Shown here: one piece after another, positions 1 to 17,123 of the stretch
Layout: each line of letters starts with the position of its first letter
Numbering within the stretch: position 1 is the stretch's first letter
Sequence record: PQ850626.1
Length of the DNA stretch: 64,000 nt
DNA from: Escherichia phage SkaterBoy_Bas90
Reading direction: 5' to 3' (one strand)
Translations under genes and position numbers: made by a program
The notes under the pieces: generated by a model
Database searches by the model: none
Seen by the model: only the letters and a program-made list of their open reading frames with translations
What the model was told of the DNA's origin: nothing

Positions 1-1542
1 ATGTCATTAGATAAACAAATTTATGAAGCTCTAACTGGTAACAACCTTAGTGTAGAGGAAAAGAAAGCACTATTGAATATGTTGAAAGAGCGTGACCAAT
101 GGAGGAAGTATAATAAGATTTTGTCTTTCAAGGCGTATGACTTCCAAAAGAAATTTTATGCAGCAGGATTGAAGCATCGCTTTAGATTCTTGTGTGCAGC
201 GAACCGTGTTGGTAAATCTTATAGCGAGGCATACGAGTTTGCTTGTCATGTCACAGGTCGCTACCCAACTTGGTGGACAGGGTATAAATTTAAAAGACCT
301 ATCTTAGCATGGGCAGTTGGTATTACAGGGGATTCCACAAGGAAAGTATTGCAAAAGGAGTTGTTTGGTACACCTATCGGAAAGGATACAAACTTATTGG
401 GGACAGGTGTCATTCCTCGTGATGCTATCGTCATTGACACGATAGAACGAGATGGTAACAAACTTCAAATCGTACAAATCAAACATCAAAACGAAAGAGG
501 AGAGTTTGACGGTTTAAGTACATTAGAATTCCGTTCAACCCAACAGGGTGAACACACATTGATGGGTGCAACAGTTGACTACATTTGGTTAGACGAAGAA
601 GATCCATACGAGTCTATGGCTATATTCGCACAGTGCGTCACACGTACACTCACAACTAAAGGTCTAGTTACAATTACAGCTACACCAGAGAACGGTTTAA
701 CTGAACTGGTAGATAAATTTATGAAAGGTGAAGGGGATGAGAACACAGGTTCTCTATATTTCCAGAATGCTTCTTGGTGGGATGCTCATGCAGACCTAGG
801 TGGACACATCACTGACCAAGATATAAAAGATATGACTGAAGGTATTCCAGCGTGGCAGTTAGAGATGCGTTCGAAAGGTATGCCATTGTTAGGAAGTGGT
901 TTGATATATGATGTATCGGATGACACAATTAAATGTGAACCATTCGAAATTCCGGATACGTGGAAACGTGTCTGTGCAATTGATATTGGTATTGATCACC
1001 CAACTGCTGCTGTTTGGACAGCTTACGATGCAAACACTGATACTATCTATGTTTACGACTCGTATAAAGAAGGTGGCTTTACTCCAGTGTATCATGCTCC
1101 AGCTATTAATGGTCGTGGTCAGTGGATTCCTGTCATCCTACCGCATGATGCGGACAATATTGAGAAAGGTAGTGGTTCATCTGTTGCTCAATTCTATAAG
1201 AATGCAGGAGTTAACGTACAGAGTGAGACCTTCTACAACAAAATTGGAATGGATGGTAAAAAGAACTTCTTTGTAGAACCGGGAATCACAGATATCCGAG
1301 AAAGAATGATGAGTGGACGCTTTAAAATCTTTAACACAGCCGCTAACGCTAAGCTATTCGAAGAGAAAGCTAGATATCACCGTAAGGTTGGTAAGATTAT
1401 TAAAGAACATGATGACTTAATGGATGCAATGCGCTATTCAGCGTGCTCTGTTACACATCGTGGTCGCTCTAAGCATGACGTTAGCTACGGAAGTGCTTCT
1501 CTGTATGAGGCAAACGTAAGCAGATGGAATCAGAGTTACTAA
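1..1542 (+). CDS. terL: terminase large subunit
   Basis: 513 aa; P-loop-like 'CAANRVGKSY', ATPase acidic patch 'YIWLDEED', RNaseH-like nuclease region 'CAIDIGIDH'; first gene of the structural block followed by portal. Confidence 0.85.
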   Translation: MSLDKQIYEALTGNNLSVEEKKALLNMLKERDQWRKYNKILSFKAYDFQKKFYAAGLKHRFRFLCAANRVGKSYSEAYEFACHVTGRYPTWWTGYKFKRPILAWAVGITGDSTRKVLQKELFGTPIGKDTNLLGTGVIPRDAIVIDTIERDGNKLQIVQIKHQNERGEFDGLSTLEFRSTQQGEHTLMGATVDYIWLDEEDPYESMAIFAQCVTRTLTTKGLVTITATPENGLTELVDKFMKGEGDENTGSLYFQNASWWDAHADLGGHITDQDIKDMTEGIPAWQLEMRSKGMPLLGSGLIYDVSDDTIKCEPFEIPDTWKRVCAIDIGIDHPTAAVWTAYDANTDTIYVYDSYKEGGFTPVYHAPAINGRGQWIPVILPHDADNIEKGSGSSVAQFYKNAGVNVQSETFYNKIGMDGKKNFFVEPGITDIRERMMSGRFKIFNTAANAKLFEEKARYHRKVGKIIKEHDDLMDAMRYSACSVTHRGRSKHDVSYGSASLYEANVSRWNQSY

Positions 1543-1547
1543 AGTAA

Positions 1548-1577
1548 GGGGGAGGTTTGTCCTCCCTTCTTTTATTT
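1548..1577 (+). terminator. stem-loop GGGAGG/CCTCCC followed by T-rich tract after terminase
   Basis: inverted repeat 1550-1555/1561-1566 then ttcttttattt. Confidence 0.5.
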
Positions 1578-1603
1578 AAGCTATCAACCGAGGGAGAGAA
1601 TCG

Positions 1604-3847
1604 ATGGCTAAGCAAAAATATAGTGAAGAGGTGTTGGACGAGTTACGTGTTGACCTTCAACGTCGTTTTAATTACGCTCAAGGTTACGTGGACATGGCTG
1701 TTAAGGGCTATGCTCGTGAAGCTTGGGAATATTTCTATGGTAACTTACCTGCACCAGTAACTGCTGGCAGCTCTAGTTGGGTAGATCGTACTGTTTGGGA
1801 ATCTGTTAACGGTACATTGCAAGATATTATTAACGTATTCTGTTCTGGTGATGAAGCAGTTACTTTCGTAGCTGACAACCAACAGGATTCTGATGCTGCT
1901 GATGTAGCAACTAAACTAGTTAACCAAATTCTTCTGCGTGATAATCCGGGATACAATATTATCTCTTCTGCTGCACAAGAATGTCTAGTTACTCGTAACT
2001 CTTTTATCAAGTATTATTGGGATGAACAAACTTCTACTCAAACTGAAGAAGCTGAAGGTGTACCACCGGAAGCATTGGCTGCATATGTTCAGGGATTAGA
2101 AGCTGGTGGACTCAAGAATCTGGAAATCTTCACTGAAGAAAATGAAGATGGTACAGTGGATGTTAAAGTTACTTACGAACAAACTGTTAAACGTGTGAAA
2201 ATTGAATATGTTCCTTCAGAGCAAATCTTTGTTGATGAACATGCTACCTCTTTTGCAGATGCACAATACTTCTGTCATCGTGTTCGTCGTTCTAAAGAAG
2301 ATCTGGTTGCTATGGGCTTCCCTAAAGACGAGATTGAAGCATTCAACGACTGGACAGACACGATGGATACTACTCAATCTACAGTTGCTTGGTCTCGTAC
2401 TGACTGGCGTCAGGATATTGATGCTGATATTGGTACAGATACCGAAGATATTGCTTCTATGGTTTGGGTTTACGAGCACTACATTCGTACTGGTGTTCTA
2501 GATAAGAATAAAGAGTCTAAACTCTATCAGGTTATTCAAGCTGGTGAGCATATCCTTCACACTGAAGAAGTAACTCACATTCCGTTTGTAACCTTCTGTC
2601 CGTATCCGATTCCAGGCTCCTTCTATGGTCAATCGGTCTATGACATTACGAAAGATATTCAAGATTTACGTACCGCGTTAGTTCGTGGTTATATTGATAA
2701 CGTCAACAATGCTAACTATGGTCGATACAAAGCTCTTGTTGGTGCATACGACCGTCGCTCTCTGCTTGATAACCGTCCCGGTGGAGTGGTTGAAATGGAA
2801 CGTCAGGACGCTATTGACCTGTTCCCATACCATAACCTACCTCAAGGTATTGACGGCCTCCTAGGCATGTCTGAGGAGCTTAAAGAGACACGTACAGGTG
2901 TAACCAAACTAGGCATGGGTATCAACCCTGATGTGTTTAAGAATGATAACGCTTATGCAACTGTAGGCTTGATGATGAATGCTGCACAGAACCGCCTCCG
3001 TATGGTATGTCGTAACATTGCTCACAACGGTATGGTTGAATTGATGCGTGGTATTTACAACCTTATCAGAGAAAATGGTGAAGTTCCTATCGAGGTACAA
3101 ACCCCTCGTGGTATGATTCAGGTAAATCCAAAACAACTGCCAGCTCGTCACAATCTTCAAGTTGTTGTAGCTATCTCTCCTAATGAGAAAGCAGAACGTG
3201 CACAGAAACTGATTAGCTTGAAACAGCTGATTGCAGCAGATGCACAGTTAGCGCCTCTCTTTGGTTTGGAGCAAGATCGTTACATGACTGCACAGATCTT
3301 TGAGTTGATGGGCATTAAGGACACACATAAATACCTTCTGCCTCTGGAACAGTATCAGCCTCCAGAACCTTCTCCGATGGAAATCCTCCAGCTCGAGATG
3401 ACTAAAGCACAGGTTGAGAACGTACAGGCTTCTTCTCAGAAGATGATTGCTGATGCATTCGACCAACGTGAACGTACTACATTCGAACAGCAGAAAGCTG
3501 CAGATGAATTAAGTCTGCGTCAGGAAGAGTTGCAGTTCAAGCAAGAAAATGCAGCAGATGCAATGACTCTGGAAAACCGTAAAGAAGATAACAATGCTAC
3601 TCTGGAACAAGCTAAGCACAAGTTAGCTCTTATGCAACAGCAGGTCCGTCAGTATGAATCTGTACTGAAAGAATTGCAGATGGTTATGTCTCATCAGGTA
3701 GACCAAGAGAAGATTGTTCAGCAAGCTCGTGTTCAGGATAAAACTTTGGAACTCCAAAAGAAAGAAGCTAATGTAACTAAGAAAGAGCAACAAGCTTCTC
3801 TCAAAGATTCACGGATTCCAGGCAAACGTCTTGGAAGTAAAAACTAA
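1604..3847 (+). CDS. portal protein
   Basis: 747 aa directly downstream of terminase with SD GGGAGAG; size, position and coiled-coil C-terminus typical of portal; no motif check possible by eye. Confidence 0.7.
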   Translation: MAKQKYSEEVLDELRVDLQRRFNYAQGYVDMAVKGYAREAWEYFYGNLPAPVTAGSSSWVDRTVWESVNGTLQDIINVFCSGDEAVTFVADNQQDSDAADVATKLVNQILLRDNPGYNIISSAAQECLVTRNSFIKYYWDEQTSTQTEEAEGVPPEALAAYVQGLEAGGLKNLEIFTEENEDGTVDVKVTYEQTVKRVKIEYVPSEQIFVDEHATSFADAQYFCHRVRRSKEDLVAMGFPKDEIEAFNDWTDTMDTTQSTVAWSRTDWRQDIDADIGTDTEDIASMVWVYEHYIRTGVLDKNKESKLYQVIQAGEHILHTEEVTHIPFVTFCPYPIPGSFYGQSVYDITKDIQDLRTALVRGYIDNVNNANYGRYKALVGAYDRRSLLDNRPGGVVEMERQDAIDLFPYHNLPQGIDGLLGMSEELKETRTGVTKLGMGINPDVFKNDNAYATVGLMMNAAQNRLRMVCRNIAHNGMVELMRGIYNLIRENGEVPIEVQTPRGMIQVNPKQLPARHNLQVVVAISPNEKAERAQKLISLKQLIAADAQLAPLFGLEQDRYMTAQIFELMGIKDTHKYLLPLEQYQPPEPSPMEILQLEMTKAQVENVQASSQKMIADAFDQRERTTFEQQKAADELSLRQEELQFKQENAADAMTLENRKEDNNATLEQAKHKLALMQQQVRQYESVLKELQMVMSHQVDQEKIVQQARVQDKTLELQKKEANVTKKEQQASLKDSRIPGKRLGSKN

Positions 3848-3856
3848 GGACGTCGA

Positions 3857-4093
3857 ATGAACATTAGACATCAATTTAATAAAGAGCACGCCGCCGCTTT
3901 GGCGGCTCTCAACCTTAACGGCAGTCTTGACGCAGCATTAGAGGCATTGAAAGAAAGACTCATGACAGAGATAGTTCAAACAGAACCTCATGAGAATAAG
4001 AAACGCGAAGATTGTTATCAAAAGTATAAAATGGTTGGTAGCTTAAAAGAGGTCATAAAAGCTGCTATCAATAGTGCAGGAGATGTTTCATAA
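3857..4093 (+). CDS. hypothetical small protein between portal and scaffold
   Basis: 78 aa ORF, stop/start coupled with next gene. Confidence 0.4.
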   Translation: MNIRHQFNKEHAAALAALNLNGSLDAALEALKERLMTEIVQTEPHENKKREDCYQKYKMVGSLKEVIKAAINSAGDVS

Positions 4094-5169
4094 TGCCACA
4101 AGATAATTATATTGACCCGAACGATTTTAAATCTTTCCTCCAACTGGATGACCTGAAAGGTTCTTTCAAAGAAGAACTCGGTCGATTAGAATCTGAACAA
4201 GAACCAGAAGTGGACATTGACGATGAGTTCCCGGAAAAAGACGGTGACGATTTCGACTTTGATACCGACCTTCTCGGTGAAAGCGATGAGCTTAAGTTCG
4301 AAGATGAAGATGGTTGGGAAGATCGTGAAGAGGAAGGCGAAGTCGAAGAAGATGAAGACGAATCCTCTGAAGCAGAAGAACAAGAGGAAGAAGATTCAAG
4401 CGATGCAGAGTATGAAGATGATTCTGCTGACGGTGAAGGTGAAGTCTTTGATGTAGACTACGAAACCGTTATCACCCTTCCTGATGGACGTGAGATGACT
4501 ATTGAAGAACTTTCTAATGGCTATCTTACTGGTGCTGATATGACAGAACGAGAATCAACTCTTCAGCGTCATATGGAAGCATTCGAGGAACGTGTAGTAG
4601 GTTTGAAGGATGTATTAGAACTAGCGTCTTTAGAAGCAGACCGAGTAATTGAAGATTATAACGGTTTTGATTGGGACAAGCTTGCAGTAGAAGATCCTCA
4701 AGCATATGTTGAAAACAAACGTTTCCTAGAAAAGTACACAGCTCGCCGTCAACAGCTTGAACAGGCTCAGGTCCGTATTAAGCAGGAAGCAGCAGCTAAA
4801 GAGCAGGAAGCTTTCCAAGCCAAGAGTATTGAATGTGTTAATATTCTGAAACGTGAGATTCCAAATTGGGATGAAAACTTATATCAAAACTTAATGCAAT
4901 ACGCAATTGACTTAGGTGCTACTGAAGAAGAAGTATTGAAGGAAAACCGTCCGTCTATTTTCCTAGCTCTCCACAAAGCATACCAATTTGATAAAGGTAA
5001 GCAACAGGTGATGGCTAAGATTAAACGTCCCGGTGCTCCACGCAAGGTTGTGAAGTCTGATGCTGCAAAGTCTCGCACTTCCAATAAGCCCGACAACGCT
5101 AAGGTTGCCAAGGCATTCGCAGAGGGTCGCGTTAGTCACGAAGACGCATTCAAATTCCTCGTAGATTAA
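4093..5169 (+). CDS. scaffolding protein (putative)
   Basis: 358 aa, very acidic N-terminal half (E/D runs), helical, located between portal and capsid. Confidence 0.6.
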   Translation: MPQDNYIDPNDFKSFLQLDDLKGSFKEELGRLESEQEPEVDIDDEFPEKDGDDFDFDTDLLGESDELKFEDEDGWEDREEEGEVEEDEDESSEAEEQEEEDSSDAEYEDDSADGEGEVFDVDYETVITLPDGREMTIEELSNGYLTGADMTERESTLQRHMEAFEERVVGLKDVLELASLEADRVIEDYNGFDWDKLAVEDPQAYVENKRFLEKYTARRQQLEQAQVRIKQEAAAKEQEAFQAKSIECVNILKREIPNWDENLYQNLMQYAIDLGATEEEVLKENRPSIFLALHKAYQFDKGKQQVMAKIKRPGAPRKVVKSDAAKSRTSNKPDNAKVAKAFAEGRVSHEDAFKFLVD

Positions 5170-5210: not shown

Positions 5211-6269
5211 ATGGCTAATCCAACTTTATTTGTATCGTATGACCAGAATGGTAAAAAACTTTCTTTTGCTAACTGGATTTCTGTTCTGTCCCCTCAGGAT
5301 ACCCCGTTCGTATCTATGACCGGTAAAGAGTCTATCAACCAGACTATCTTTAGCTGGCAGACCGATGCACTGGCAAGCGTTGACGGTAATAACGCACACG
5401 TCGAAGGCTCTCGTGCTGAAGACGGTGAAATGAAACCGACTGTTATCAAATCTAACGTTACTCAGATTCTGCGTAAGGTTGTTCGTGTTTCTGATACTGC
5501 TAACACCACCGCTAACTACGGTCGTGGTCGTGAACTGATGTATCAGCTGGAGAAGAAAGGTAAAGAGATCAAGCGTGACCTCGAGAAAATCCTTCTGTCC
5601 GGTCAGGCTCGTACCGACGTTCTGGCTGACCAGTATCTGACTAACTCTGCAACTGATCCTGCTGTTGTTGGTCTGAATGACACCCATGCAGCTCGTAAGA
5701 CTGGTGCATTCCAGTTCCTGTGTGCTCACGGTGGTCTGGCTGGTGGCGTTGTTGACAAGACCAAGAATGGTCCTGCTGACCCGGACACTGGTGCAGTAAC
5801 TGTTAAAGTTGCACAGAATGCTTCTAACCCGACCACTAACATTGGTTTCGACGAAGCTGATATCTTTGATATGACTCTGCAACTGTATACCGCTGGTTCT
5901 GAAGCAGATATCATCATGATTAACCCGGCTCATGCTAAGATCTTTGCTGGTCTGCAAGAAAATACTCAGGGTTCACGTAAGCGTATCTTTGAGAACACCA
6001 AGCAGTTCATCTACGAAGTTAACAGCATCACTGACCCGCTGGGCCAGAGCTACAAAATCATCGTTAACCGTTGGATGCCTACCGATGCAGTTTACTTCTT
6101 CCGTAGCGCTGACTGGACTCAGATGGTTCTGCGTGCTCCGAAACGTACTGAACTGGCTAAAGACGGTTCTTACGAGAAGTGGATGATTGAAATGGAAGTT
6201 GGTCTGCGTCACCGCAACCCGTATGCTTCCGGCGTTCTGTTCACTGCTGCGGGAAAGGTGGCGGCGTAA
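5211..6269 (+). CDS. major capsid protein
   Basis: 352 aa after scaffold; host-optimised codon usage (CTG, CGT, GGT, AAA); strong terminator downstream; -1 frameshift extension (below). Confidence 0.75.
   Translation: MANPTLFVSYDQNGKKLSFANWISVLSPQDTPFVSMTGKESINQTIFSWQTDALASVDGNNAHVEGSRAEDGEMKPTVIKSNVTQILRKVVRVSDTANTTANYGRGRELMYQLEKKGKEIKRDLEKILLSGQARTDVLADQYLTNSATDPAVVGLNDTHAARKTGAFQFLCAHGGLAGGVVDKTKNGPADPDTGAVTVKVAQNASNPTTNIGFDEADIFDMTLQLYTAGSEADIIMINPAHAKIFAGLQENTQGSRKRIFENTKQFIYEVNSITDPLGQSYKIIVNRWMPTDAVYFFRSADWTQMVLRAPKRTELAKDGSYEKWMIEMEVGLRHRNPYASGVLFTAAGKVAA
6251..6257 (+). promoter_or_regulatory. -1 ribosomal frameshift slippery heptamer G_GGA_AAG
   Basis: X_XXY_YYZ in capsid zero frame, 10 nt before capsid stop; -1 frame open 6191-6793. 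Confidence 0.55.
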
Positions 6270-6280
6270 CAGTAGACAGT

Positions 6281-6793
6281 GTGACTGTTAGCCCTGCGTC
6301 TTTAGCAAGTCTAGAGACAGGGGCTACTCGGCAGTTCACTGCAAGCGCGGAGAAAAGTGATGGTTCTACCGAAACAACTGGCTTTACTTGGTCAGTGACA
6401 GGAGGTGGTTCTATCACTCAGTCTGGTTTGTATACTGCTCCGAGTGCGTCTCAATCCACTGATGTATCCATTACTGCAACTTTAGAAGGTGTTTCTGGTA
6501 CAGCAACCATTTCTGAAATTGTTGCTCCTGCTCCTACTATTGTAGCTAAGGGTCCAATTACGGGTAAAACTGGTGGTTCTTCCACTAATTTCACTACCAT
6601 GTTTACTGTAACTAACTCTGCTGCTGCGGATTACACGTTTGTTGTAACTCCTACAGAAGCCGGTACAGTAAGCGCCGCTGGTGCGTTAACCTTAGATGCT
6701 GCTGCAAGTGGCGAAGTTACTGTTCAAGCAAGTTTGACAGCTGACCCGTCCATCAATGCAACATGCACTTTTACTGGTGTAACACCTGCTTAA
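6281..6793 (+). CDS. capsid C-terminal extension with Ig-like (Big_2-type) domain, probable -1 frameshift product
   Basis: ORF in -1 frame of capsid gene, no ATG (GTG only), S/T/A/G-rich beta-type sequence 'TVSPASLASLETGATRQFTA'. Confidence 0.55.
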   Translation: MTVSPASLASLETGATRQFTASAEKSDGSTETTGFTWSVTGGGSITQSGLYTAPSASQSTDVSITATLEGVSGTATISEIVAPAPTIVAKGPITGKTGGSSTNFTTMFTVTNSAAADYTFVVTPTEAGTVSAAGALTLDAAASGEVTVQASLTADPSINATCTFTGVTPA

Positions 6794-6800
6794 AATCAGA

Positions 6801-6830
6801 CCCTGCCTTCGGGCGGGGTTTTTTCGTTTT
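6801..6830 (+). terminator. rho-independent terminator (UUCG tetraloop hairpin + T tract)
   Basis: CCCTGCC-TTCG-GGCGGGG followed by ttttttcgtttt. Confidence 0.8.
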
Positions 6831-6852
6831 AAGACCTATACAAGCTAGTGTG

Positions 6853-14105: not shown

Positions 14106-17100
14106 ATGGCGCTGTATCCAATAAAGTCACTAGGTGCTGTGGGCGTTATCGCTGATCAGGCTCCGACAGACTTAGCTCCTAATGCTTTCACTAATGCTAT
14201 AAATGCTCGATTTGTTGAGCAGAGAGTATTTAAGACGGGGGGCAATGCCCCTCTTTCTTATGTAGATGAAGATAAGGATTTAACCCCTCTGTCTTTCGTT
14301 TCTATGCCTTTCGATTATTATAGCGCAGGTAATAGCTTTCTTGTTGTAGGTACAAATAAGAAGTTATATAAACTAACAGATGAAAGCTTGACTGATATTA
14401 GCCGTAAGGTTGCTACAGTCACTAAGAAGGCTTCTGCCTCAATTAAGATTTATCCAGTTGTTTCTCAGATCGTTCCTAAAGAATCAACTATCTCAATGAA
14501 CTTCAATCAGACCAAGAATCTAGAGGTTTCTCTTCTCCCTGCTGATGCTAACAATACCGATCTTATTTGGGAGGTTAGTAACTCATCCTATGGAAGTATT
14601 ACGGTAGACCCTAGTGACTCTAAACTTGCTACTCTAACATCTTTTGAGAAAGAGGGTAATCTTGTAGTAACTATCTCTACTGCCAATGAATCTGTAGTGG
14701 CTCAGATTGCTGTTAATATCATCGATGGTGATTCAGGCATCTTCTTGAGTCAAGATACTGTTACAATTCGTAAAGGAGGGACTACTACTCTCACGGCTGT
14801 TACTGGCAAAACTCCTGTAACTTGGTCCAGCAATAACGCTTCTATTGTATCTGTAACTCCTAACGCCAACTCTTTAACTGCTGTCATTACAGCGAATGGA
14901 GAAGGTAATGTAACAATCACTGCTGATAACGGGACTAAGACTGCTTCTTGTGAGATTGTTTCTATCCCTCAGATTGATAGCATTTCTTTAAGCCAGTCAG
15001 ATGTTACTGTGAGTAGAGGTTCTCAGTATATCTTAACTGCTACCCTTTCTCCTGCTAACGCCCCTAATCAAAATATTACTTGGACCTCTTCTAATCCAAA
15101 TATTGCAACAGTATCAGGGACTGGCACACAAGGGACGATCAACGCTCTACTTGCTGGTTTTACTGAGATTACAGCTACCACTGAAGAAGGTAGCAGAGTT
15201 GCTGTCTGTACTGTACGTGTGGATTTAGCTGGAAGGACAATGAGAACAAGTGCTATGGCATTTGCCGCTCCTGTGTCAGAGTCAGTAGAAACTCAAGAGG
15301 AAGAAGTAGTAACTCCTCCTGAAAGTGAAGAGACGGTTTATTTTGCTGAGCCTACATCCGGTATTGATACGTCAGGGATGTACGAAGGTAATAACTTCTA
15401 TGACTACTCTAACGTGAACGACATTGAAGGTTTTGCAAGAGCTTCTTTACTGGCAACCCCTCTGTCATCTGTAACCTTAGATATTGTCAGCGCTTCTCTT
15501 GATGTTGGTGAAGAGATTGTCATTACCGCTACGGCTTCTCCAGAAGGCGATTATTCTTATCAATGGTCTGTTGATAAAACTGGCTATGTTTCTACAACTT
15601 CAGTCACTGGTAAATCTATCAAACTGGTTGCTCTCCGTAAAGGGGAGATTAATGTAACTTGTACTGTTAGTCAGATGACTCAGAAAGATTACGATGCTTT
15701 TGATGACTATCCTTGGTATCACGCTGTTATCTCTAACTGTGCAGTTGCTACAACTCACTATGAAACTCCTCAGGTAAAAGAATTCGAATCAGAATACTTT
15801 GTAGACCTTCCGGGGTGGGGTGAGCAAACAGTTGTTGATAATGATGGAAACCCTTCAGTCAAGAAGTTTAACTGGAAATGTGAGAGAGTAAGATCTTTTA
15901 ACAACCGTCTTTTTGCTCTGAATATGAGAGAGGCTAATGCTTCTGGTGTTACCACTAACTACCCGCTTCGTCTTCGTTGGTCTAACTTTGCCAATGAGAA
16001 CAAGGCTCCTACACTGTGGGATGACTTTGCCTATGATCGAGTTGTGTCTTCGGACTTAGCTTCTAACATCGTAGGGCAGACTCAGGCTCTAGAGAATGGG
16101 TATGCTGGTTACATTGACTTAGCTGACTCTAATGGTAGCTTGATTGATATCCTGCCTCTTAAAGATTACTTGTTCGTTTACACAGAGTTTGAAACGTATA
16201 TTGGTTCTCCGACTAATAACACGTACCAACCTCTAATGTTCAAGAAGCTCTTTAACGACTCTGGTATCCTTGCTCCTGAGTGTGTAGTTGAAGTAGAAGG
16301 TAGTCACTTCGTAGTTACTCAGAACGATGTAATCTTACATAATGGTGCAACCAAGAAATCAATTGCATCTAACCGTGTCAAGAACATGCTGATTAACGAG
16401 GTGTGTCTGGTTAACCCTCTAGCAACTAGAGTACACTTGCATCAGGATAAGAAAGAAGTCTGGGTTCTCTATGTAGGACCGGGGGAGCCAAAAGAAAGCT
16501 TCGCTTGTACCAAAGCTGCTGTATGGAATTATGAGTTTGATACCTGGTCTTTCCGTACTATCCCATATGCTCAGTGTATTGGTCTGGTTGATCCTCCTGT
16601 TTTAGAAAGAGGTCCAATCTGGTCTGACTTCCAAGAAATCACTTGGGATGACCCATCTATTAAAGAACTCGTTTGGAGAAAGGATGCAACAAACTTTAGA
16701 CAGAGGGTTACGATAGTAGGTTCATTCTTGAAGGGATTCTATCAAGTGGATGTAGGTGCTCTTGATTATTTCTATGACAGGCTAAACGATGTTGTTATAG
16801 AGAAGCCTCTGGAAATGAGGTTGGAGAGGACTGGTATAGATTTTGATAATGTGACGAATGAGTGGAATCAGAAGCATATTAACAGGTTCCGACCTCAGAC
16901 AACTGGTTCAGGTACTTACATATTTGAAGCTGGTGGTAGTCAATTCTCAAATGAATATGGACACCCACACACATCTAAGACATATACGATCGGTGTTGAC
17001 AGGCATGTCTCGGTGAGACTGAACCATCCATACCTTTTCTATAATGTTATAGATAATGATGTTAATAGTAATGCTGCTATCAATGGTTTAACGATAGAGT

Positions 17101-17123
17101 TTGCTGTTGGCGGGCGGAGATAA
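14106..17123 (+). CDS. large virion protein with tandem Ig-like (Big_2) domains
   Basis: 1005 aa; repeated ~80 aa S/T-rich units 'VTIRKGGTTTLTAVTGKTPVTWSSNNASIVSV...'. Confidence 0.6.
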   Translation: MALYPIKSLGAVGVIADQAPTDLAPNAFTNAINARFVEQRVFKTGGNAPLSYVDEDKDLTPLSFVSMPFDYYSAGNSFLVVGTNKKLYKLTDESLTDISRKVATVTKKASASIKIYPVVSQIVPKESTISMNFNQTKNLEVSLLPADANNTDLIWEVSNSSYGSITVDPSDSKLATLTSFEKEGNLVVTISTANESVVAQIAVNIIDGDSGIFLSQDTVTIRKGGTTTLTAVTGKTPVTWSSNNASIVSVTPNANSLTAVITANGEGNVTITADNGTKTASCEIVSIPQIDSISLSQSDVTVSRGSQYILTATLSPANAPNQNITWTSSNPNIATVSGTGTQGTINALLAGFTEITATTEEGSRVAVCTVRVDLAGRTMRTSAMAFAAPVSESVETQEEEVVTPPESEETVYFAEPTSGIDTSGMYEGNNFYDYSNVNDIEGFARASLLATPLSSVTLDIVSASLDVGEEIVITATASPEGDYSYQWSVDKTGYVSTTSVTGKSIKLVALRKGEINVTCTVSQMTQKDYDAFDDYPWYHAVISNCAVATTHYETPQVKEFESEYFVDLPGWGEQTVVDNDGNPSVKKFNWKCERVRSFNNRLFALNMREANASGVTTNYPLRLRWSNFANENKAPTLWDDFAYDRVVSSDLASNIVGQTQALENGYAGYIDLADSNGSLIDILPLKDYLFVYTEFETYIGSPTNNTYQPLMFKKLFNDSGILAPECVVEVEGSHFVVTQNDVILHNGATKKSIASNRVKNMLINEVCLVNPLATRVHLHQDKKEVWVLYVGPGEPKESFACTKAAVWNYEFDTWSFRTIPYAQCIGLVDPPVLERGPIWSDFQEITWDDPSIKELVWRKDATNFRQRVTIVGSFLKGFYQVDVGALDYFYDRLNDVVIEKPLEMRLERTGIDFDNVTNEWNQKHINRFRPQTTGSGTYIFEAGGSQFSNEYGHPHTSKTYTIGVDRHVSVRLNHPYLFYNVIDNDVNSNAAINGLTIEFAVGGRR

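Follow-up and report, generated by a model that had tools for sequence, protein, structure and literature searches.

A predicted programmed −1 ribosomal frameshift in the major capsid protein gene of the Kuravirus Escherichia phage SkaterBoy_Bas90

The capsid frameshift of the phiEco32-like group of phages is already known and has been published since 2008. It is said to have been described for phiEco32 by Savalia et al. in that year, as related by the papers that cite this work and by a RefSeq note. In phage SU10, Mirzaei et al. (2014) identified the GGGAAAG motif, predicted a head-protein fusion to the Ig-like coding sequence "as in phage phiEco32", and used mass spectrometry to detect two forms, one of 38.5 and one of 55.4 kDa (PMC4281155). 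The paper on the Proteus phage Privateer describes a GGGAAAG frameshift signal and the detection of the long form in virions, also by mass spectrometry (PMC7881722). A survey of the Kuraviruses (PMC9965538) extended the heptamer and the −1 isoforms, which measure about 500–550 aa and up to 892–894 aa, to the whole group, and the capsid frameshift is also reported for phage YF01. For close relatives, the presence of the long form in virions is thus reported in the literature. In the RefSeq record of phage Paul (NC_070992), the CDS is joined and bears the remark "Frameshift at GGGAAAG", which adds that the major capsid product of phiEco32 is frameshifted too (PMID 18294652). Such addition of Ig-like domains by frameshifting was treated by Fraser et al. 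(2006), as cited in PMC9965538 and PMC5009743.

The sequence analysed here is a stretch of 64,000 nt from Escherichia phage SkaterBoy_Bas90 (PQ850626.1), referred to as the window, and the locus considered lies at 5211–6793. Judged from its sequence, the source is a Kuravirus, a phiEco32-like podophage of E. coli. The 1583 nt of the locus are 100% identical to Escherichia phages EC.W2-6, EC.W14-3, and EC.W8-1, and share 98.8% nucleotide identity with phiEco32, the type Kuravirus (98.3–98.8% when SU10 is also considered). The gene order, which runs from the portal through a small ORF, the scaffold, the capsid, the Ig ORF, and the adaptor to the tail fibre, is that of phiEco32 and SU10, and the capsid module is nearly identical to and syntenic with phiEco32 genes 8–14. 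The following features are referred to below:

5211–6269, plus strand: major capsid protein gene, from ATG at 5211 to TAA at 6267–6269; 352 aa, 38.7 kDa, HK97 fold
6191–6269, plus strand: overlap of two open frames, that of the capsid and −1, the latter having a stop at 6188–6190 and being open afterwards
6251–6257, plus strand: slippery heptamer G_GGA_AAG in the capsid zero frame, read directly from the sequence
6257–6793, plus strand: −1 frame extension, 178 aa and a stop, with a Big_2 domain at residues 6–83 followed by a second beta-rich module
6798–6831, plus strand: intrinsic terminator at the end of the capsid transcription unit, with a 10-bp stem of which six pairs are G-C, followed by a T run

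The identity of the capsid gene is supported by several searches. Its product matches the Pfam family SU10_MCP (PF17236) with an E value of 9e-77 (258.8 bits, cut-off 24.1) and the solved SU10 capsid chain 7z45_A with an E value of 9e-236, and it belongs to PHROG 1328, the major head protein. The counterpart of the gene is phiEco32 gene 11, with 98.8% nucleotide identity. Terminators are annotated in SU10 and Paul at the position matching 6798–6831.

At the 3′ end of the capsid gene, the zero-frame codons read GCG GGA AAG GTG GCG GCG TAA. The heptamer at 6251–6257 is a canonical X_XXY_YYZ motif, whose codons GGA and AAG stand in the capsid frame. The original prediction placed this zero-frame heptamer correctly, while its distance of 10 nt to the capsid stop is in fact nine (6258–6266). 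Translation of both frames confirmed the capsid gene at 5211–6269 and a −1 frame which, after the stop at 6188–6190, is open from 6191 until the TAA at 6791–6793 and provides 178 codons after the slip. The two products, predicted at 352 and 527 aa with the junction ...FTAAGK-GGGVTVDSVTVSP, were recomputed with the same outcome, and the region around the predicted junction reads ...LFTAAGKGGGVTVD. The calculated masses of 38.7 kDa for the short form and 55.6 kDa for the long form agree with those determined for SU10 by mass spectrometry, 38.5 and 55.4 kDa (PMC4281155).

The heptamer as such is not enriched in the window, where six copies of GGGAAAG are observed and 7.1 are expected. The argument rests on its frame, position, and conservation. 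Among the copies in the window, that at 6251 is the only one placed in the zero frame of a long ORF and followed by a long −1 ORF. From the expected density, the chance of finding a copy in the right frame inside the 79-nt overlap can be estimated at about 0.0015, and the conservation of the arrangement across the relatives settles the question against an origin by chance.

Loci of relatives were gathered from GenBank, IMG/VR, and metagenomes with capsid peptide patterns, so the sampling was blind to the heptamer. The metagenome scan added 14 loci, few of which are divergent, which leaves the covariation test underpowered. GGGAAAG occurs at the identical codon position in all Kuravirus loci sampled, which comprise 14 distinct local sequences. 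Between the heptamer and the stop, both sequence and length differ among these loci, the length from 9 to 15 nt (GGTGGCGGCG, GGCAGTGGCGGCG, GGCGGGAGCG, GTTGGATCCGCAACAG). The heptamer is also found at the capsid 3′ end of two Privateervirus genomes, Privateer and CsaP_009, whose capsids are 57% identical to that of SkaterBoy_Bas90 and whose extension is of another Ig type, I-set and Big_2. The −1 ORF is intact in every sampled locus except SU10.

Two further observations were made in the same collection of loci. The length of the extension lies between 169 and 545 aa, and it varies even where the capsids are 99–100% identical to that of SkaterBoy_Bas90 (L029–L031). Such differences in length behind near-identical capsids indicate a mosaic boundary situated right at the recoding site. 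In Lahexavirus-like relatives (L016–L018 and LAh_9), the −1 frame that follows a non-canonical G_GUA_AAG holds Ig ORFs free of methionine.

The codon usage of the capsid gene adds a separate line of evidence. The gene is strongly biased, with CTG used for 19 of the 23 leucines, CGT for 15 of the 16 arginines, and neither ACA nor ACG used at all. The GGA at 6252, within the slip site, is the sole GGA among its 26 glycine codons. Such confinement of GGA to the heptamer points to selection on the slippery sequence itself. The extension differs from the capsid gene in its codon usage, with a GC3 of 0.27 vs. 0.46, and contains no CTG. This relaxed usage fits a low translational flux, a separate origin, or both.

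The extension is composed of two beta-rich modules, and Big_2 is demonstrable for the first of them only. Residues 6–83 match Pfam Big_2 (PF02368) with an E value of 2.1e-5 and 24.8 bits, above the gathering score of 22.8. The Ig-like (Big_2) assignment made in the original prediction thus holds for the first module, while the second is unmatched to Big_2 and resembles the C-terminal, Ig-like domain of T5 pb6 only weakly (E 0.24). The whole extension belongs to PHROG 13745, "Ig domain containing protein" (E 1e-80). A sequence search against solved structures returned only marginal matches (E 0.09–0.25), and an AlphaFold2 model calculated without an alignment has an all-beta secondary structure at low confidence (mean pLDDT 55.6). 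The content of S, T, A, and G, predicted to be high, amounts to 59% in the extension and 32% in the capsid, and the Big_2 domain expected in the protein encoded at 14106–17123 is found there with an E value of 5e-23. The extension evolves under purifying selection, with pN/pS of 0.15–0.39, in the −1 frame only.

These data are best explained if ribosomes translating the Kuravirus major capsid protein gene undergo a programmed −1 frameshift at its 3′ end, a reading which we consider very probable from the sequence comparisons. The locus combines a zero-frame heptamer, an open −1 ORF, the lack of a conserved start of its own, and conservation together with selection in the −1 frame. The fusion of the capsid to an Ig-like tail by such a shift, as originally proposed, is supported by these sequence features, by the comparison of relatives, and by the literature.

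The most familiar alternative is that the Ig-like ORF is a separate gene, as phiEco32 gp12 was deposited, which starts at GTG 6281 and encodes a free decoration or minor capsid protein of 170 aa. It is annotated in this way in many GenBank records, and the SU10 cryo-EM paper treats gp10 as a protein of its own (PMC9509320). The ORF listed at 6281–6793 does begin at GTG, and it was said to lack an ATG and a Shine-Dalgarno sequence of its own. Such is the case: the first ATG in the frame is residue 115 of the extension, and no Shine-Dalgarno-like motif was found in the 18 nt preceding the GTG (GGCGTAACAGTAGACAGT). The GTG is replaced by GTA or ATA in 7 of the 11 distinct relatives, and since the Big_2 match begins at extension residue 6, a start at this position would cost it its first residues. 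The first start codon past the capsid stop is residue 47 in L013/KBNP1711, 34 in the Paul-type extensions, and 61 in Privateer, whose extension was scanned for ATG and contains none at all. Selection acts on codons which lie upstream of any possible start. In the first 28 codons past the stop, pN/pS of the −1 frame is 0.15–0.32 in seven of the eight comparisons, and the eighth is 0.72 and concerns the near-identical Bas94, where differences are few. Read in the other two frames, these codons show pN above pS in seven of the eight. Since there is no conserved start and the early codons are under purifying selection, only ribosomes coming from the capsid frame can read them. The first eight residues of the tryptic peptide GGGVTVDSVTVSPASLASLETGATR of the extension are encoded upstream of GTG 6281. 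We therefore regard a separate gene as very improbable.

The access to the second frame could also be ascribed to RNA polymerase slippage at GGGAAAG, that is, to editing of the transcript rather than to the ribosome. The runs at this site consist of just three G and three A, while known transcriptional slippage sites need, to our knowledge, homopolymers of about seven or more. Moreover, the motif is an exact tandem-tRNA X_XXY_YYZ heptamer in the right frame, and G_GGA_AAG is listed as highly shift-prone on E. coli ribosomes (PMC5009743). Nothing specific speaks for slippage at this locus, which we hold to be extremely improbable, although trans-frame phage proteins arise in this way elsewhere (reviewed in PMC5009743). 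Finally, the arrangement could be a decaying remnant, in which the heptamer is kept only for the ...AGK... of the capsid and the downstream ORF is no longer expressed. SU10 provides the support for such a view. Its record contains a 1-nt insertion that ends the −1 frame after 11 codons (also noted in PMC9965538), the extension density was not seen by cryo-EM (PMC9509320), and SDS-PAGE in the cryo-EM study gave no long band according to PMC9965538. SU10 is the sole discordant datum for the frameshift. In all other loci, the −1 ORF is intact and under purifying selection, and longer versions with several domains, of up to 545 aa, have arisen from the extension repeatedly. The otherwise avoided GGA encodes glycine at the slip site only. 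The long form is also reported in the virions of phiEco32, SU10, and Privateer, as far as these are covered by PMC7881722 and PMC4281155. A decaying remnant is, in our estimate, scarcely credible, and the frameshift remains the preferred reading.

The region downstream of the heptamer was considered for RNA structures that might stimulate the shift. Two candidate hairpins were recognised:

6267–6290, plus strand: candidate stimulatory hairpin 1, UAACAGU paired with ACUGUUA, 7 bp with a 10-nt loop, beginning 9 nt past the heptamer
6291–6324, plus strand: candidate hairpin 2, directly 3′ of hairpin 1, with pairing of 6291–6295 to 6320–6324 and of 6298–6305 to 6311–6318

The stem of hairpin 1, including four synonymous third positions, is unchanged in 10 of the 11 distinct relatives, and its loop is variable; covariation was looked for across the 11 relatives, and none was found in this hairpin. 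In hairpin 2, compensatory changes are present among the relatives at 6301–6315 (U-A, G-C, A-U) and 6302–6314 (G-C, U-G), although they are few and come from related lineages. Single-sequence folds of the downstream region in SkaterBoy_Bas90, Paul, L013, and Privateer have z values of −1.25 to −1.78 against shuffled sequences, which are not significant. An upstream Shine-Dalgarno-like stimulatory motif is not present at the slip site. A stimulatory element is not known to be obligatory for a −1 frameshift, as the lambda G-T shift works without a defined structure. Altogether, the sequence comparison is only suggestive of a possible conserved downstream stimulatory RNA structure made of the two candidate hairpins. 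The SU10 paper proposed a different stem-loop (CTGCTGC...GCGGCGG), which encloses the slip site. Its folding does not surpass that of shuffled sequences (z +0.25), and its 3′ arm is missing in Bas94, so it was not adopted.

The expression of the locus could then proceed as follows. Most ribosomes would translate GGA-AAG-GUG-GCG-GCG-UAA and end with the 352-aa capsid protein of HK97 fold. In a minority of them, the tandem glycine and lysine tRNAs would slip back by one base on G_GGA_AAG, and the slipped ribosomes would read GGG-AAA-GGU-GGC-GGC-GUA... to give a capsid protein of 527 aa. The last 178 residues of this long form would constitute the Big_2 Ig-like domain and the second beta-rich module. 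The long form would co-assemble at low copy into the prolate head, with the Ig-like modules presumably displayed outside. By analogy, the efficiency of the shift may be a few percent, between about 3.5% for lambda and 10% for T7, both quoted in PMC9965538. The SU10 head contains 715 capsid subunits (PMC9509320), and with an efficiency in this range a virion would carry tens of long subunits, roughly 25–70. The Ig-like modules may act in weak adhesion, and the downstream hairpins may have a part in the shift. Weak adhesion to carbohydrate or mucus is a candidate role for Ig-like domains on the surface, a point of relevance since Kuraviruses like ES17 are on trial in the gut.

The main practical value of the analysis is a correction of annotation. 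In the majority of deposited Kuravirus genomes, the 100%-identical records among them, the extension is entered separately as "hypothetical", "Ig domain", or "hemagglutinin", or is omitted, while the right product is a joined capsid CDS. The original prediction missed that the feature had already been described and that the extension has two beta-rich modules. SkaterBoy_Bas90 represents one further case of phages adding Ig-like domains to structural proteins by frameshifting, and mildly new leads come only from the putative RNA structure downstream and from the relatives' non-canonical sites. The occurrence of G_GUA_AAG with −1 Ig ORFs in the Lahexavirus-like relatives may hint at one ancestral capsid-Ig recoding site. 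It is conceivable, though on present sequences rather unlikely, that the shift needs a previously undescribed RNA element (the hairpins at 6267–6290 and 6291–6324) and that the A_AAG shift position predates the canonical heptamer, being an ancestral capsid-Ig recoding site across several phage families. If the site is ancestral, the 7-11-like phages would have swapped recoding for gene duplication.

Compared with the known systems, SkaterBoy_Bas90 is closest to phiEco32 (gp11/gp12) and SU10 (gp9/gp10), with which it shares the heptamer, its position, the Big_2 extension, and the predicted masses. There is no essential difference between them, and the truncating insertion of the SU10 record is absent in SkaterBoy_Bas90. 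Paul and YF01 have the same heptamer and the same first Big_2 domain. The extension of Paul is 545 aa, which gives a long form of 894 aa, compared with 178 aa for the extension in SkaterBoy_Bas90, and Paul has one codon more between the heptamer and the stop. The Proteus phage Privateer likewise shifts by −1 at a GGGAAAG at the capsid 3′ end into Ig-like domains. In this phage, unlike in SkaterBoy_Bas90, the heptamer directly abuts the stop, the domains are I-set and Big_2, and the capsid is 57% identical.

A different solution is present in Salmonella phage 7-11 and Escherichia phage ECO319P1, whose capsids are homologous members of SU10_MCP and which also have a second, longer form ending in Big_2. 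There, a distinct paralogue encodes the long form, carrying its Ig domain as an in-frame fusion, without a heptamer or a frameshift. The lambda G/G-T shift uses the same G_GGA_AAG heptamer, as was stated in the original prediction, but the proteins are unrelated, and its product is a tail assembly chaperone which is not part of the virion. In T3 and T7 (gene 10A/10B), a minor, C-terminally extended capsid protein is produced by a −1 shift (PMC9965538, PMC5009743). T7 differs from SkaterBoy_Bas90 in its slip site, in the extension, which is not Ig-like, and in the protein, which is unrelated (PMC5009743). The extension of T3 is Ig-like, as is that of SkaterBoy_Bas90 (PMC9965538, PMC5009743).

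The length of the Ig-like extension behind the capsid gene varies among relatives. Extensions of 217, 370-372, 437-443 and 545 aa were found in seven loci (L022, L025, L027, L042 and the metagenome contigs L029, L030 and L031), and the capsids ahead of them are 94-100% identical to the capsid of the window (99-100% in the three contigs). The boundary of the Ig-domain cassette exchange therefore lies at the slip site or just after it.

Codon usage in the window (5211-6793) changes abruptly at the recoding site. In the capsid gene, leucine is encoded by CTG in 19 of 23 cases and arginine by CGT in 15 of 16, and the threonine codons ACA and ACG are absent; GGA serves for one of the 26 glycines, solely at 6252. 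The extension has no CTG and ten ACA codons, and its GC3 is 0.27, whereas that of the capsid gene is 0.46.

Further features of relatives and of the window, in the coordinates of each locus, are as follows.

3861-4433 (L016-L018): Ig-domain ORF, -1 frame relative to the capsid
3861-4190 (L009 and L019, Aeromonas phage LAh_9 type): Ig-domain ORF, -1 frame relative to the capsid
1982-2920 and 3001-4758 (L007, Salmonella phage 7-11): capsid paralogues
2992-3930 and 4011-5096 (L008, ECO319P1): capsid paralogues
within 1069-3927 (L010, APT65): capsid paralogues
6798-6831 (window): strong intrinsic terminator, a 10-bp stem followed by a T run, directly 3′ of the extension ORF

In L016-L018 and in the LAh_9 type, the first 63 nt of the -1 ORF overlap the capsid end, and its Ig content is either a pair of Big_2 domains or a single I-set domain. 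No methionine occurs in the ORF of L016, and the only one in LAh_9 is residue 57; the annotated LAh_9 start at 3966 would remove the beginning of the Ig domain. The capsid gene ends in ...CUG AAG GUA AAG GCG UAA in L016-L018, with CCC in place of GCG in LAh_9 and L019. The sole candidate slip site in these loci is the non-canonical G_GUA_AAG (A_AAG), the position of which is homologous to the Kuravirus slip site. A canonical A_AAA_AAG is present in the distant relative L021 (capsid 55% identical) at 3921-3927, 3 nt 5′ of the capsid stop, and the -1 ORF behind it has merely 45 codons.

In phages 7-11, ECO319P1 and APT65 the capsid gene is present as two to four paralogues in tandem, and the heptamer is absent from their loci. 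In 7-11, a Big_2 domain is fused in frame to one paralogue; the in-frame Big_2 match on one ECO319P1 paralogue is weak (19.4 bits, below the Pfam cut-off of 22.8). Short and long capsid forms are here reached by gene duplication.

The SU10 record (L023, KM044272) departs from all relatives at 4066-4078, which aligns to window 6276-6287. It reads ACACTGTCTACTG, where the others have ACAGTGT-GACTG. This one-nucleotide insertion, located in the loop of hairpin 1, the candidate stimulatory stem-loop, closes the -1 frame after 11 codons. It may have arisen by mutation in the laboratory or by an error in sequencing, and may explain the disagreement between mass spectrometry and cryo-EM in the published reports.

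Annotation of the extension is inconsistent among the GenBank matches (H1-H30), where the names given to it as a product of its own are 'hypothetical protein', 'Ig domain containing protein', 'major head protein' and 'hemagglutinin protein'. It is left without any annotation in YW01 (L003) and, among the Kuravirus records examined, is joined to the capsid CDS in Paul only. In MLP3 (L026), an inserted HNH homing endonuclease separates the extension from the adaptor gene.

Because the terminator stands directly 3′ of the extension ORF, the capsid and the extension close a transcription unit. The records of SU10 and Paul have annotated terminators at the matching place. Big_2 domains (E 5e-23) also occur in the 1005-aa protein encoded at 14106-17123 of the window, the size of which corresponds to the 110-kDa gp17 of SU10, a nozzle protein bearing Ig-like nozzle domains (PMC4281155, PMC9509320).
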